Both the position numbers and the translations under genes were made by a program. From positions 1 through 45,257 of the forward strand of contig JAYORB010000001.1 of the NCBI GenBank assembly GCA_038123155.1: a stretch of DNA of 45,257 nucleotides. Reading direction: 5' to 3'. The notes beneath the pieces are model-generated. The model ran no database searches and was not told the origin of the DNA. It worked only from the letters and a program-made list of their open reading frames with translations. This document shows positions 1,296-7,506 of the stretch, piece by piece; positions within the stretch are counted from its first letter, which is position 1; every line of letters begins with the position of its first letter. This DNA comes from Aquiluna sp. GTDB taxonomy: Bacteria > Actinomycetota > Actinomycetes > Actinomycetales > Microbacteriaceae.

Positions 1296-2339
<1,044 letters not shown>

Positions 2340-2349
2340 TAGAAGGATT

Positions 2350-2380
2350 AGGACCCCGGGAGACCGGGGTCTTTTTCTTT
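2350..2380 (+). terminator. Intrinsic terminator of the ilv operon
   Basis: Stem AGGACCCCGG / CCGGGGTCTT with a GAGA (GNRA) loop, followed by a T-rich tract, 10 nt after the ilvC stop. Confidence 0.9.
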
Positions 2381-2387
2381 CGGCGAG

Positions 2388-2417
2388 TTGCTATACCCCT
2401 AGGGGTATTAGTAAACT
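2388..2417 (+). promoter_or_regulatory. Putative sigmaA-type promoter containing a CsoR/CstR-family operator
   Basis: TTGCTA (2388-2393), 18-bp spacer, TAAACT (2412-2417); perfect 16-bp palindrome ATACCCCTAGGGGTAT at 2393-2408 fills the spacer. Confidence 0.8.
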
Positions 2418-2450
2418 AGTGTGATTGACGTCTGTAGAAAAGGATTGTTT

Positions 2451-2570
2451 ATGTGCTCACAAGCTATTTGCTCAAGCTGCGGCAAGGTCACCTGGCAAGG
2501 TTGCGGCCAGCACGTCGAAGAGGCGCTGGCTGGTGTTCCAGAGTCACAACTCTGCACCTGCCCTAGATAG
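2451..2570 (+). CDS. 39-aa Cys-rich small protein MCSQAICSSCGKVTWQGCGQHVEEALAGVPESQLCTCPR (not in the ORF track)
   Basis: Translated by hand. ATG 2451 with an AAAGGA RBS about 7 nt upstream, TAG 2568-2570, own promoter/operator. The C-x4-C-x2-C-G-K-x-T-W-x-G-C-G-x-H...C-x-C pattern resembles a conserved uncharacterised small-protein family recalled from actinobacteria. Confidence 0.85.
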   Translation: MCSQAICSSCGKVTWQGCGQHVEEALAGVPESQLCTCPR

Positions 2571-2628
2571 CAATAAACGCTAGACTTAGCGGAAATCCCA
2601 TCACCGTTGATTTTCGTTAGGTCAGCTA

Positions 2629-4224
2629 TTGTCCAAACCCATAGTTCTGATTGCCGAGGAGCTGTCCCCGGCAACCGTTGAGGCGCTCGGTCCAGATTTC
2701 GATGTCCGAAATGTGGACGGGACCGATCGTGCTGCCCTCTTTACTGCGCTCGCAGATGCGAATGCTGTCTTGATTCGCTCCGCGACAAAGATGGATGCAG
2801 AGGCTGTCTCCAAGGCACCAAAGCTGAAGGTAATTGCCAGGGCTGGCGTCGGCCTAGACAACGTTGATATCAAAGCTGCAACCGAGGCTGGAGTCATGGT
2901 CGTGAATGCTCCGACCTCCAACGTGATTTCAGCTGCAGAACTCGCTATCGGCCACATCATGGCTCTGTCTCGCCACATCCCCGATGCACACGCATCCTTG
3001 AAGGAGGGCAAGTGGCTCCGGAGCAAGTTCACCGGGGTTGAGCTCTATGAAAAGACCATTGGAATCGTTGGACTGGGCCGAATCGGAACCCTGGTTGCTC
3101 AGCGCCTAGCTGGGTTTGGTGCGACTCTCATTGGCTACGACCCCTACGTAACCCAGGCACGAGCTGAGCAAATCGGGGTCGAACTGGTTGACCTGGACGA
3201 GCTTATGAAGCGCAGTGACTACGTCACGATTCACATTCCAAAGACCCCAGAGACTACCGGGATGATCAGCGATGCGCAGTTCGCTACCGCAAAGCCAAAC
3301 CTGAGAATCGTGAATTGCTCGCGCGGTGGAATCATTGACGAGGATGCCCTTTACAAGGCTTTGAGCTCGGGCAAGATTGCGGGAGCCGGGCTGGATGTGT
3401 TTGTTTCGGAACCCCCAACCGGATCTCCGCTGCTGGAGCTGGATAACGTAATTCTCACCCCGCACCTCGGGGCTTCAACCGACGAGGCTCAGGAGAAGGC
3501 AGGTGTTTCAGTCGCAAGGAGCGTCCGGCTCGCCTTGGCGGGAGACCTAGTTCCGGATGCAGTCAATGTTGCGGGCGGTGTAATCGACTCGTCCGTGAAA
3601 CCAGGCATCCCGCTTGCGGAAAAGCTCGGTCAGATTGTCGCTGGATTGGCCCACACTTCAATCGTCTCGGTTGAGTTTGAGGCACGTGGCGAAATCGCAG
3701 CTCACGACGTGACGGTTTTGAAGCTGGCTGCACTCAAGGGGCTCTTTCAAACAATGGTTACCGAGCAGGTCTCCTACGTAAATGCGCCAATCATGGCCGA
3801 GCAGAGAGGCGTCGAGGTTCGTCTAACTCAGGACACGGTGAGCGATGAGTATCGAAACGTCACGACCCTAAAGGCAGTTTTGTCAGACGGCACTGTGGTC
3901 TCTGCTGGCGGCACGGTAATCGGCCCAAAGCACCACCAAAAGGTTGTCTCAATCAATGGGTATGACGTTGAGCTTGCGATGGCTGACAACATGGTCGTCA
4001 TGGTCTACCAGGACCGACCAGGCATCGTCGCGATCTACGGCGCAGCTTTTGCAGACGCCAACATCAACATCGCTTCAATGACCATTGCTAGGCAGCAAAA
4101 GGGCGGTAAAGCTCTCAGCGTGATAACTGTTGACTCGCCAATTGCCCCAGAGCTCCTAGAAGGGCTAAAGAGCAAGATTCAGGCGGAGATGATGCGGGCT
4201 ATCTCGATTAGTGAGCAGTACTAA
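2629..4224 (+). CDS. serA: D-3-phosphoglycerate dehydrogenase (type I, with ASB and ACT domains); TTG start
   Basis: RAGVGLDNVD, GLGRIG, TPHLGAST, C-terminal ACT (DRPGIVA). Confidence 0.97.
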   Translation: MSKPIVLIAEELSPATVEALGPDFDVRNVDGTDRAALFTALADANAVLIRSATKMDAEAVSKAPKLKVIARAGVGLDNVDIKAATEAGVMVVNAPTSNVISAAELAIGHIMALSRHIPDAHASLKEGKWLRSKFTGVELYEKTIGIVGLGRIGTLVAQRLAGFGATLIGYDPYVTQARAEQIGVELVDLDELMKRSDYVTIHIPKTPETTGMISDAQFATAKPNLRIVNCSRGGIIDEDALYKALSSGKIAGAGLDVFVSEPPTGSPLLELDNVILTPHLGASTDEAQEKAGVSVARSVRLALAGDLVPDAVNVAGGVIDSSVKPGIPLAEKLGQIVAGLAHTSIVSVEFEARGEIAAHDVTVLKLAALKGLFQTMVTEQVSYVNAPIMAEQRGVEVRLTQDTVSDEYRNVTTLKAVLSDGTVVSAGGTVIGPKHHQKVVSINGYDVELAMADNMVVMVYQDRPGIVAIYGAAFADANINIASMTIARQQKGGKALSVITVDSPIAPELLEGLKSKIQAEMMRAISISEQY

Positions 4225-5866
4225 TTACTTTCGCTCGCTCTCTGGCATCCATGCCTGAGCGCCAGGTGGTGTAGCCGCCGTCTAGGTTTCTAACCTTCAG
4301 GCCGTGTGAGCGAAGCAGCTGTGTCGCCGTGTGGCCCCGCTGACCAACTGCACAGGTCACAATGAGGTCTTTCCCCTCCAGCTTTGAAATGTTGTCTCGC
4401 AGCGTATCGACTGGGATCAGGGTCGAACCCGGGATGCTTCCCGCAGAGTTCTCCTCACTGGTTCTCACATCTACAAGCAGCGCTCCCTCTTGCATGGCAC
4501 TCTCTAGCTCGTGCCACTGAATGCTTGGCGTCTTTCCTGAGAGTGAGTTGTTGCCAACGTAGCCGGTTTGATTGATGGCATCTTTTGCACTTCCAAAGGC
4601 TGGCGCGTATGCGAGCTCGAGGTTCATCAGATCATCCACGGTTAGGCCCGCATAGATGGCCGTGGCAATCACGTCAATTCTCTTGTCGACGCCCTCACGC
4701 CCAATGCCCTGAGCCCCCAGGAGTTTTCCCGTTTCGGGGTCAAAGAGCACCTTGACACTAAGCCTCTCGGCACCTGGGTAATAGCCTGCGTGGCTGGATG
4801 GGTGGAGGTGAATTACTCGGTGGGGAATCTCCATGCGAGTCGCAAGCCCTTCGGTAAGCCCGGTAAGTGCCGCGGCCATGCCGTAGGCACCGATGATTCC
4901 GGTTCCAATCGAGGGCCTAGAGCTAACTTCTTCACCTGCGATGACGTCAGCGACGAGCCTGCCGTGGCGATTTGCAAGGTTGGCAAGCCAAATCATTTGG
5001 GGTTCTCCCGTGAGGAGGCTGGTCTTCTCAGCGGCATCACCGACCGCAAAAATGTTCGGGTCCGAGGTCTGCATACGTTCGTTTACCGCAATGCCACCGG
5101 CCTTGCCAATTTCCAGTCCCGCATCAACGGCGAGCTGGTGGTCGGCGACAACACCAATTGCTGCAACTACCAGGTCAGCAGGAATTACCCTGCCGTCCTT
5201 GAGCCGGAGAGAGTCAGCAAGGACCTCCTCGGTCTCGGCACCAAGAGCCAGCTTGATTCCGTTTTCGACAAGAACTGCCTGCAGCGGCTCAATCATCTCT
5301 GGATCGAACTGGGGGAGGATGTTGTCCCTGAACTCCACGATCGTGGTCTCAATCCCTCGATCCCGGAGGTTCTCCGCTAGCTCGACTCCAATGAATCCAG
5401 CACCAATGATTGCCGCGGACTTGATTTTCTTTTCATCCACCAATTTCTTGATCTCAGTTGCATCCTGGACGTCTCTGAGAACCTTGGCTCGCTCGAGCCC
5501 TGGAATTGGAACCATTCGGGGCTTAGCACCGGTGGAGAGTACGAGGGAGTCAAAGCTCTCGAGGTATTCCTCGCCATTTTCCAGGTTTTTCACGGTCACC
5601 GACTTTGAGCCGCGGTCAATGTTTGTGACTCTTGAGTTGACCCGGACATCCAGGCGGAAGCGCTCTCCAAGGCTCTCCGGGGTCTGAAGCAGTAGGTCCT
5701 TCTCAGCAGGAATTACCTCTCCAATGTGATACGGCAGGCCGCAATTCGCATATGAAACGTGAGGTCCCTGTTCAAAGACAATGATCTCTGCATATTCGCG
5801 GAGCCTGCGGAGCCTCGTGGCGGTGGACATGCCTCCCGCAACGCCACCGACAATTACTACCTTCAT
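4208..5866 (-). CDS. CoA-disulfide/persulfide reductase-rhodanese fusion (CoADR-RHD, Npsr/CoAPR-like)
   Basis: GGVAGG FAD site, SYANCGLPY redox Cys, GAGFIG NAD site, LAYAP, C-terminal rhodanese domain DVR...CAVGQRG. Confidence 0.92.
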   Translation of the reverse strand: MKVVIVGGVAGGMSTATRLRRLREYAEIIVFEQGPHVSYANCGLPYHIGEVIPAEKDLLLQTPESLGERFRLDVRVNSRVTNIDRGSKSVTVKNLENGEEYLESFDSLVLSTGAKPRMVPIPGLERAKVLRDVQDATEIKKLVDEKKIKSAAIIGAGFIGVELAENLRDRGIETTIVEFRDNILPQFDPEMIEPLQAVLVENGIKLALGAETEEVLADSLRLKDGRVIPADLVVAAIGVVADHQLAVDAGLEIGKAGGIAVNERMQTSDPNIFAVGDAAEKTSLLTGEPQMIWLANLANRHGRLVADVIAGEEVSSRPSIGTGIIGAYGMAAALTGLTEGLATRMEIPHRVIHLHPSSHAGYYPGAERLSVKVLFDPETGKLLGAQGIGREGVDKRIDVIATAIYAGLTVDDLMNLELAYAPAFGSAKDAINQTGYVGNNSLSGKTPSIQWHELESAMQEGALLVDVRTSEENSAGSIPGSTLIPVDTLRDNISKLEGKDLIVTCAVGQRGHTATQLLRSHGLKVRNLDGGYTTWRSGMDARERAKVISTAH

Positions 5867-6198
5867 TTTCGTACCGTCCTAAGTCCTGCTCTTTGCCAGG
5901 CGACCATGCCGCCGGAAACATTTGTCACGTTGTAGCCCTCTTTTGTCAGCAGTGTTGCTGCCTGGGAGGAGCGCCCGCCCGAATTGCAAATAACCAATAT
6001 CTCTCGCTCTTTGGGAATCTCTTTGAGCCTGCGGGGGAGCACTCCCAATGAAATCAACTTCGCACCCGGTGCGTGGCCACTGCGATACTCGACGCTCTCC
6101 CTAACATCAAGCAGCATCGCACCAGCCTGGATGCGAGCCTCTGCCTCCTGCGGCGTAATCGAAGGAAACTTTGGTTTCAAAAAATCGAACAGTCCCAT
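5863..6198 (-). CDS. Single-domain rhodanese (sulfurtransferase)
   Basis: LLDVRE..EY..GH.PGA, active-site loop CNSGGRS, GGMVAW; 4-nt overlap with the CoADR-RHD start. Confidence 0.92.
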   Translation of the reverse strand: MGLFDFLKPKFPSITPQEAEARIQAGAMLLDVRESVEYRSGHAPGAKLISLGVLPRRLKEIPKEREILVICNSGGRSSQAATLLTKEGYNVTNVSGGMVAWQRAGLRTVRK

Positions 6199-6204
6199 AT
6201 GTTC

Positions 6205-6462
6205 CTAACTCAGTGCCAAAAAGGCTTTTTCGAGGCGCGCGCGATCCCTTTCGCCCTCTTCGCCGGTGCCGCAGTTCGAGATTCCAGATGCCAGAAGAGC
6301 AAAAGCGGCTTTGTTCACCGCGGAGTTGGCGGCAGCAAGCTGAGTCAGCACATCAGTGCAGTCTCTACCCTCGTCCAGCATTTTGATGATGCCCCCCAGC
6401 TGGCCCTGGGCCCTTGCGAGGCGCTTCTTTACAGCGTCGATTTCTAGTGCTGGAATCTCCAT
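6205..6462 (-). CDS. CsoR/RcnR-family (DUF156) repressor, CstR/Rv1766-like; start reassigned to ATG 6462
   Basis: RLARAQGQLGGIIKMLDEGRDC..V..QLAA...GISNC signature; a GGAG RBS lies just upstream of ATG 6462. Confidence 0.9.
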   Translation of the reverse strand: MEIPALEIDAVKKRLARAQGQLGGIIKMLDEGRDCTDVLTQLAAANSAVNKAAFALLASGISNCGTGEEGERDRARLEKAFLALS

Positions 6463-6480
6463 AACACGCTCCATTCGAAC

Positions 6481-6518
6481 TTGACTAAACAAACTCTAGC
6501 ACATACCCTAGGGGGTAT
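6481..6518. promoter_or_regulatory. Divergent promoter region with a CsoR/CstR-family operator
   Basis: Operator ATACCCTAGGGGGTAT at 6503-6518. Plus strand: TTGACT (6481-6486), 17 bp, TACCCT (6504-6509, inside the operator). Minus strand: extended -10 TGcTAGAGT (hexamer 6493-6498). Confidence 0.8.
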
Positions 6519-6533
6519 CTGAAAGGACACCCA

Positions 6534-6902
6534 TTGAAGCTTATGAAGACCCTTGCCGCTGGCATACTTGCTGTTGTCGCCATATTCGGACTAGCAGGAT
6601 GTGCACCGGAAGAAATGAACCCACAGGACTACGCAGCAGTAATTGACGTTCGCACCCCAGAGGAGTGGGCATCCGGCCACCTCGCTGGAGCAGTCCGCAT
6701 GGGTATTGCTGACAGTGACTTTGCCGCTCAGCTCGAGACTTTGGACAAGAGTGCCGATTACTACATCTACTGCCGCTCCGGTAACCGTGCTGGCCAGGCC
6801 ATCGATTTCATGGAGAGCATTGGCTTCACCGGAGAGCTGGTCAATGGTGGATCTGTTGCTAACGCGTCCGCTCAGCTTGGCCTTGAAGTGGTAACCGATT
6901 AG
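6534..6902 (+). CDS. Rhodanese-domain lipoprotein; TTG start
   Basis: AAAGGA RBS; basic N-terminus, hydrophobic core and lipobox LAGC; DVRT..EW..GH; active loop CRSGNRA. Confidence 0.9.
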   Translation: MKLMKTLAAGILAVVAIFGLAGCAPEEMNPQDYAAVIDVRTPEEWASGHLAGAVRMGIADSDFAAQLETLDKSADYYIYCRSGNRAGQAIDFMESIGFTGELVNGGSVANASAQLGLEVVTD

Positions 6903-7506
6903 CTCAGCAGATTGGGATAGGCGCTATGCCCAGGAGGCAAGTGTCTGGTCTCTAGAGCCAAACCATTTTGTTGTAAGTGAGCTGGGAGACCTCCCTCCCG
7001 GGCAAGTAGTTGACCTTGCCGGCGGAGAAGGCCGCAATGCGCTTTGGTTTGCATCGAGAGGCTGGCAGGCCGAGAACGTCGAGTTCTCAAAAGTTGCCCT
7101 TGAGAAATTTGTTGCAAGGGCCGAGGCACTAGAGCTTGAGAACCAATGTCGCGCTACTCATGCCGATGCCAAGCACGCCAAGTTTCAGCTCAAGCCGGAC
7201 CTGCTACTTATCTGCTACCTCCAACTGCCTTGGGCAGAGCTTGAGCAAGCCCTCGATAACGCACTTGACCAGCTTGGCGAGGGAGAGATCTTCGGGGTTT
7301 GGCACGCCTTGAGGAATGTAACCGAGGGTTTCGGCGGACCTCCATTGCCTGAGCTAAATGTCGATCCCGATAAGTTGAGCAGCTGGGCGGAATCGCGAGG
7401 TCTGATCTTTGATTGTCGAGAGCGGGAGCGGAGGGTCTCCAAGGATGGCGCTGAGGTGACCGCTATCGACGTGCAATTTAGGGCAAGCGCTGACAAAAGC
7501 GAATAG
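6898..7506 (+). CDS. Class I SAM-dependent methyltransferase (TehB/thiol-methyltransferase-like), about 202 aa, apparent ATT start; the ORF track shows only 7309-7506
   Basis: Hand translation gives [56 protein letters not shown]... with SAM motif [10 protein letters not shown]. In-frame TAA at 6892-6894; no ATG/GTG/TTG until 7309. Confidence 0.85.

Follow-up and report, generated by a model that had tools for sequence, protein, structure and literature searches.

The first 45,257 nucleotides of contig JAYORB010000001.1 (assembly GCA_038123155.1, Aquiluna sp., Microbacteriaceae), hereafter called the window, carry a locus that can be viewed, with a probability of roughly 0.75, as a regulon that persulfides induce and that clears sulfur reductively: five genes, two predicted operators and a CsoR-family repressor with two cysteines, the usual persulfide dioxygenase (PDO) being missing. 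This reading is built on the identities of the genes, their catalytic cysteines, the boxes found over likely promoters and the co-occurrence of box, regulator and a small cysteine-rich peptide, all of which are read from the sequence. By its predicted parts, the regulon is a variant of the known CstR/ScCsoR persulfide system. Its core circuit adds little; its value lies in two accessory families, the peptide and a methyltransferase. Six accessory frames sit among ilvC, serA and leuB, and serA (2629–4224) parts them into two blocks (2451–2570 and 4208–7506), all six frames of the initial annotation being present. The features of the locus are the following:

2350–2373, plus strand: intrinsic terminator after ilvC (terminator-like stem of 10 pairs and a T run), which parts the peptide gene from the ilv operon
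2388–2417, plus strand: likely peptide promoter, TTGCTA at 2388–2393 and TAAACT at 2412–2417 the box lying in their spacer (identified by eye in sequence and alignment)
2393–2408, no strand assigned: predicted operator box 1, ATACC-N6-GGTAT, whose core is invariant in 10 aligned genus sequences selected for carrying the box
2451–2570, plus strand: mini-protein of 39 amino acids (aa) with the pattern C2-C7-C10-C18-H21-C35-C37, from an unnamed family reaching eukaryotes
4208–5866, minus strand: fusion of a CoA-disulfide/persulfide reductase (CoADR) with a rhodanese (C42, C505; Pfam, full-length PDB matches)
5863–6198, minus strand: single-domain cytoplasmic rhodanese (C71, loop CNSGGR; PF00581, E 1.7e-20)
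6205–6462, minus strand: CsoR-family repressor of the x-C-x-C type (C35, C64, Gly at the copper-sensor His position; PF02583; 85 aa from ATG)
6481–6509, no strand assigned: likely back-to-back promoters, TTGACT at 6481–6486 for the plus-strand genes and TG-n-TAGAGT at 6501–6493 for the minus-strand genes (by eye, alignment of 10 genus sequences)
6503–6518, no strand assigned: predicted operator box 2, between the divergent operons (exact match, genus alignment)
6534–6902, plus strand: lipoprotein rhodanese (lipobox LAG-C23, catalytic loop CRSGNR; PF00581)
6898–7506, plus strand: class I S-adenosylmethionine (SAM) methyltransferase of the Slr1183-like group, with a probable ATT start overlapping the rhodanese stop (frame open from 6895)

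In this region, Pfam names a reductase with a C-terminal rhodanese, two stand-alone rhodaneses, the PF02583 repressor and a class I methyltransferase. The same box had been claimed for both blocks, and ATACCC-N4-GGGTAT is indeed found exactly at 2393–2408 and 6503–6518, with no third exact copy in the 1,230,528-bp genome of the window (G000, 86% complete). Two sites with one mismatch (contigs C3 and C29) lie inside other coding frames and were dropped as likely due to chance. Five near-complete relatives from the genus carry 2, 2, 2, 1 and 1 exact boxes, every one at the equivalent place, and the reversed pattern gives none in these five genomes. Both boxes overlap promoter-like elements (by eye, from alignments); a consensus promoter scan of 2300–2700 called no promoter, though it detected the upstream terminator.

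The repressor is encoded by the only PF02583 gene of G000, and the five near-complete relatives also have one each. Its cysteines C35 and C64, with a Gly four residues before C64, define an x-C-x-C protein from which the copper-binding His is missing. Its best PDB match is the pneumococcal CstR 7MQ1. In a tree of 35 proteins, it falls among His-less regulators, including those adjoining PDO, TauE and rhodanese genes (50–56% identity), and a 100/100 branch splits its group from five copper sensors with C-H-C ligands. Its neighbours are sulfide/persulfide enzymes, as expected for a CstR-type sensor, with neither CopA nor CopZ; the C-H-C ligands and copper-export neighbours of copper-sensing CsoR/RicR are not found. 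In the genomes checked, a box with a spacer of six nucleotides (N6) occurs at all six C-x-C regulator genes, while a seven-nucleotide spacer (N7) occurs at four of the five C-H-C genes and N6 at none. The N7 spacing at copper-type genes agrees with the consensus of the copper CsoR of Streptomyces lividans (PMC3902906). These data support a regulator of persulfide type rather than copper type, as first proposed. Two points weigh against this assignment. The spacing rule is not absolute, as the cst operator of Streptococcus mitis is N7 and the ricR promoter site has the short spacing. Furthermore, a published network table places a named 85-aa Aquiluna node in the six-member cluster 178 and not in cluster 3, that of the actinomycete RSSH sensors (PMC8643695); this placement is that of the named entry.

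Although the initial annotation considered the regulon undescribed, its two closest relatives are published. The ScCsoR protein of S. coelicolor (SCO0620) senses sulfane sulfur via two cysteines and binds ATACC-n6-GGTAT, as supported by electrophoretic mobility shift assays, including at a site flanked by csoR and rhodanese genes that diverge from it (PMC7533328). The window shares with this circuit an actinobacterial two-cysteine CsoR, the 29-residue spacing of its cysteines, the identical 16-bp box and the placement of this box between diverging regulator and rhodanese genes. Unlike the ScCsoR circuit, which is oxidative (PDO and TauE), the locus is one for which neither PDO nor TauE was found; it has in addition the CoADR-rhodanese, the lipoprotein rhodanese, the methyltransferase and the peptide. 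Sampling of 11 genomes from the genus carrying ScCsoR-type circuits turned up no copy of the peptide. The second relative is the cst-like operon of Enterococcus faecalis and Streptococcus mitis (cstR-rhdA-rhdB-coaP), described together with the definition of the x-C-x-C persulfide sensors (PMC8643695), which likewise joins a repressor, two single-domain rhodaneses and a CoA-persulfide reductase. The mechanism of the EfCoAPR-type enzyme uses C42 and C508 (PMC9405070); the reductase Cys42 is common to both systems, and the rhodanese Cys is at 505 in the window. The window differs in that one of its rhodaneses is a lipoprotein, in that its genes are split over divergent operons and a remote gene, and in its operator, which is one base shorter than that of S. 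mitis. Neither the peptide nor the methyltransferase is named as an operon member in the accessible sections of these two papers (PMC8643695, PMC9405070).

The lasting result is the statistical tie between a cross-domain Cys/His mini-protein family and predicted persulfide-sensor operators. The peptide was found in 42 of 400 genomes drawn from the phylum (a lower bound, 17 candidates being scored per genome), and all 45 copies from these 42 carriers were examined. In 16 of the 45 copies, spread over 10 families, an exact N6 box stands no more than 150 nt from the start, against 0.0002 boxes expected per 150 nt from shuffles. A pattern scan gave at least 122 stretches, or 118 after removal of two duplicates (L160, L184) and of two without the full pattern; among the matches listed, such a box precedes 50 of 131 copies (50 of 118 stretches). 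Taking the phylum draw together with the matches listed, N6 boxes outnumber N7 boxes at peptide genes by 66 to 2 (one N7 in each set), and the downstream control of peptide genes gives 0 boxes. The initial annotation had proposed to scan the genome and its relatives for the box and for gene co-occurrence: a box is found within 3 kb upstream of the peptide in 24 of the 26 phylum genomes with a regulator match vs 0 of the 16 without. Within the genus, it precedes the peptide in 21 of 27 regulator-positive vs 0 of 3 regulator-negative genomes examined; over 62 genus genomes, 37 have peptide and regulator, 5 the peptide alone, 5 the regulator alone and 15 neither. The recurrent neighbours of the peptide are PDO-rhodanese, CoADR-rhodanese, TauE, thioredoxin, CMD and DUF302 genes. 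Loci combining peptide, box and regulator are present in records of Leucobacter, Cellulosimicrobium and Microbacterium, among others. Taken together, these counts support the view that the peptide truly belongs to the regulon. In 10 of the 16 box-bearing phylum copies, the box overlaps the peptide ATG, the last two bases of the operator being the AT of this codon (L093, L096, L098, L100, L101, L102, L104, L114, L119 and L122), which suggests leaderless transcripts and a repressor sitting on the start codon in these ten loci.

An assignment to copper or another metal, the peptide then being a metallothionein like MymT, is quite improbable. The RicR regulon with MymT (PMC3944814) is, like the present one, a scattered CsoR-family regulon that includes a small Cys-rich protein; RicR governs a metallothionein and small open reading frames (ORFs), the small Cys/His-rich protein of the window stands behind a TAC/GTA palindrome, the N7 box usual for copper CsoR stands before two peptide copies, and the best NCBIfam hit is RicR, at a score far under its cut-off. 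Unlike the copper sensor RicR, the regulators travelling with the peptide are His-less and are accompanied by sulfur enzymes: the copper His is missing from the regulator of the window and from all 51 readable CsoRs neighbouring the peptide (19/19 and, among the matches listed, 32/32; two more are cut off). A motif search of 122 peptide loci among the matches listed found a heavy-metal-binding motif near one and a P1B ATPase near none, and the 66 to 2 excess of N6 boxes points the same way. The two genes with the one-base-longer box (L084, L255) could have been rewired.

Several observations limit the tie of the peptide to a persulfide-type regulon. Neither regulator match nor box was detected in 16 of the 42 peptide-positive phylum genomes, 6 of the 27 regulator-positive genus genomes have no box before the peptide, and the eukaryotic members cannot be under this regulator; the peptide therefore lives outside the regulon too. 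Sulfur genes are nearby at only one of seven non-actinobacterial peptide loci. Moreover, the regulator profile was built from peptide-linked regulators, with 9 candidates scored per genome, which inflates co-occurrence, and the sampled genomes are kin, so that the tallies are not independent. The phylum draws include an unpublished genome, G158, on which no positive claim rests.

A regulon answering general thiol oxidation or electrophile stress and not sulfane sulfur in particular, in which the peptide would store zinc in redox-labile form next to thioredoxin and AhpD-like (CMD) proteins, is improbable, though less so than the metal assignment. Thioredoxin and CMD proteins are each found in 6 of 44 peptide regions, and the dithiols of CstR are reactive towards tetrathionate and simple oxidants too (PMC8643695). 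On the other side, all three enzyme-bearing neighbours of known family in the window carry rhodanese domains, and sulfane sulfur is a signal for ScCsoR, which shares the box (PMC7533328). A thioredoxin of the same subfamily in G000 (C3:17840–18220), 64% identical to the type that adjoins the peptide elsewhere, has no box upstream.

The peptide belongs to a large family (701 relatives at the 50%-cluster level) that reaches poplar, fungi and a rotifer; its named members, from Populus, Colletotrichum, Tricharina, Dissophora, Obelidium, Adineta and Demequina, are all labelled 'hypothetical' or uncharacterised. It is found in 41 of 61 genus genomes. No match with a name came from Pfam, NCBIfam, PDB sequences, Foldseek, VIA-align or ESM Atlas, the fold search being weak at 39 residues. 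A literature search on the family and its motifs, with subscription papers mostly beyond its reach, found nothing, and the exact 39-aa sequence is missing from a collection of 15 billion proteins. The initial annotation held the gene to be invisible to standard ORF calling, which goes too far for the peptide: its ORF shows up at a 35-aa cut-off and its relatives are routinely called as genes. C2, C7, C10, G17, C18, G19, H21 and C35 are invariant in a 46-member alignment, and the AlphaFold2 model is a small confident fold (pLDDT 90). At the seventh ligand position, 176 copies, including the matches listed, have C-x-C (108) or His (68) and nothing else. This swap of Cys and His suits metal ligation, and not disulfide or persulfide chemistry, at that position and makes a mini-protein that binds metal likelier than a simple sink for sulfur. 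Of the proposed Cys-rich sink, membership of the regulon was retained, and the sink itself fits less well than a folded metal-binding mini-protein. Selection gives a mixed picture that tells against the main reading: by a crude estimate, nonsynonymous divergence (pN) is far below synonymous divergence (pS) among close relatives and about equal to it for several distant ones. The box before the peptide likely gives this family, until now only 'hypothetical', its first functional lead, in the form of a specific and testable link to persulfide sensing. Among database versions of the peptide over-extended at the N-terminus (proteins P0003–P0152), 17 of 69 hold a translated operator-like stretch, gene callers having read through the box. 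Some genomes have two peptide copies close together (L159, L183, L186, L097).

The methyltransferase is the part of the locus to which invisibility to ORF calling does apply: its frame is open from 6895, only ATT is available as start before the conserved W-D-x-R-Y motif, and an ATG, GTG or TTG start supports 7309–7506 alone. The gene probably starts at ATT here. In the genus, 7 of 19 copies likewise lack a standard start before this motif and offer instead an ATT that overlaps the rhodanese stop; over the first 60 codons, five ATT-only relatives show pN of 0.03–0.19 vs pS of 0.25–0.80. Translation by coupled re-initiation is likely, because in four distant rhodanese-methyltransferase pairs the methyltransferase has an ATG or GTG of its own, which overlaps the stop in two of them. 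Since the +1 frame is kept at 15 of 17 genus junctions, a fusion of the two proteins through a +1 frameshift was also weighed. Overlapped re-initiation was preferred as the likelier: the codon preceding the stop is variable, TGATG or TAATG overlaps occur at 2 of 17 junctions and the distant pairs have their own starts. A search of longer proteins for such a fusion found none, which is weak evidence. With its likely ATT start, seen in no fewer than two sets of relatives, the gene represents a type that is shortened by annotation.

These starts bear on the least probable of the alternatives, in which the peptide ORF would be a cis-acting cysteine-sensing leader for serA, serine being a precursor of cysteine, and the methyltransferase a decaying passenger. 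Throughout the genus, serA follows the peptide ORF at a distance of 58 nt, mycobacterial Cys-rich short ORFs function as attenuators (10.1101/834739) and the seven genus copies without standard start could be taken for decay. By the published criterion, an attenuator has at least two Cys codons in succession and stands upstream of a cysteine-related operon that it regulates (10.1101/834739); consecutive cysteines are found in 0 of 132 peptides among the matches listed. Outside the genus set, serA-like genes are near just 3 of 122 loci among the matches listed. The non-Cys residues K12, W15, G17, G19 and H21 are conserved out to eukaryotic members, and the low pN of the methyltransferase N-terminus argues against decay.

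All 19 genus carriers of the methyltransferase also have the regulator. Among 26 distant methyltransferase loci (G158 being left out of this count), 8 have a rhodanese, PDO, thioredoxin/reductase or box within 1.5 kb, vs 0 of 43 control windows, which are non-random; 4 of the 26 directly follow a lipoprotein-type rhodanese. The proposed link of the methyltransferase to sulfur genes was thus recovered at distant loci, and the Slr1183-like methyltransferases are tied to predicted persulfide-sensor operators, more weakly than the peptide is. The link is loosened by the absence of the methyltransferase from 23 of 42 regulator-positive genus genomes and of a sulfur neighbour from 18 of the 26 distant homologues. 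The closest solved relative by sequence, and also by fold, is Synechocystis Slr1183 (E 7.8e-13; 1e-22 with a profile), for which no function showed in the papers listed with it; TehB and TPMT are more distant (Pfam TehB 22.6 bits for a cut-off of 20.4, TPMT under its cut-off, NCBIfam TehB far under its own). The nearest folds, likewise a point against the proposed role, are an uncharacterised protein, a mycobacterial heterocyclic-toxin methyltransferase and TehB, with no sulfide methylase. S-methylation is a reasonable guess from genomic context. MddM1 and MddM2, the H2S/methanethiol S-methyltransferases of Actinomycetota (PMC12904073), are class I SAM enzymes of about 200–210 aa from the same phylum, and their activity is proposed here by analogy, the sequence similarity not being significant. 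Identity with them was rejected: the best E-values are 0.91 against eight MddM1-type proteins and 0.042 against MddM2 (genes located with the published primers), and the protein falls short of the published rule of at least 40% identity over 70% (PMC12904073). Should sulfide or thiols prove to be its substrates, the enzyme would add to MddM1/M2 another microbial source of methanethiol or dimethylsulfide, located in aquatic actinobacteria with small genomes.

The core enzymes are typical. The CoADR-rhodanese aligns over its full length, reductase and rhodanese included, with BaCoADR-RHD (3ICR, E 1.5e-154) and EfCoAPR (8A56, E 1.8e-143) and keeps both catalytic cysteines (C42, C505); it scores below the NCBIfam cut-offs for CoA-disulfide reductase. 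The exported rhodanese of the initial annotation is borne out by a signal peptide, a lipobox Cys and a CRSGNR loop in 10 of 10 relatives examined. Rhodanese PspE of Escherichia coli is periplasmic. It makes cellular sulfane sulfur out of thiosulfate and provides a functional precedent (PMC10215317). As initially noted for the window, PDO was not found: neither PDO nor TauE gave a tblastn match in G000 (86% complete), so the sulfur-clearing route looks reductive.

By analogy with characterised relatives, the reduced repressor would sit on both boxes; per- and polysulfides would cross-link C35 to C64' and release it. The rhodaneses would hand sulfane sulfur to C505 of the CoADR fusion, which would reduce it via CoA, C42 and FAD to H2S, and the lipoprotein rhodanese would treat thiosulfate or polysulfide at the cell surface. 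The roles that follow are proposals of the present analysis. The 39-aa protein, once induced, may serve as a metal buffer or take up sulfane sulfur while thiols are being persulfidated; that it does so as a folded thiolate mini-protein which binds metal, most likely zinc, through seven ligands has a little under even odds. The methyltransferase, made by re-initiation at ATT, might methylate sulfide or a thiol product to a volatile or inert form, a more tentative proposal. A broader scenario is rather unlikely: the 39-aa protein would found an old metal-thiolate mini-protein family of bacteria, fungi, plants and rotifers, acting in reactive-sulfur homeostasis as a persulfide carrier or persulfide-triggered zinc switch, and together with the methyltransferase family would form a dioxygenase-free 'reduce and methylate' route that vents sulfane sulfur as volatile methyl-sulfur in streamlined aquatic actinobacteria.

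The accessory genes match the backbone in GC content (0.54–0.58), and throughout the genus the block occupies the same genomic position, from which single parts have been lost here and there. Contigs from metatranscriptomes span the region, and in two runs of a single study they include the peptide; as they come from strain relatives, possibly from DNA, and give neither level nor strand, they were not used as evidence. One contig (run X1, window 2296–2578) joins ilvC to the region upstream of serA and skips the peptide, likely because it comes from a relative without it. In L036 (G010), frameshifted rhodanese and ilvE matches are probably assembly errors. A gene of about 175 aa, reductase-like by eye, lies between ilvC and the peptide in some relatives (L037:3301–3837; similar in L033, L034, L039, L044 and L018). 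Many relatives (L033, L034, L036, L037, L039–L042, L044) have an extra rhodanese directly after the repressor, which the clade of the window lacks; in L035, L043, L045 and L048, it is the sole gene remaining at the locus. In the window, the ends of serA and of the convergent CoADR-rhodanese gene overlap by 17 bases (4208–4224).

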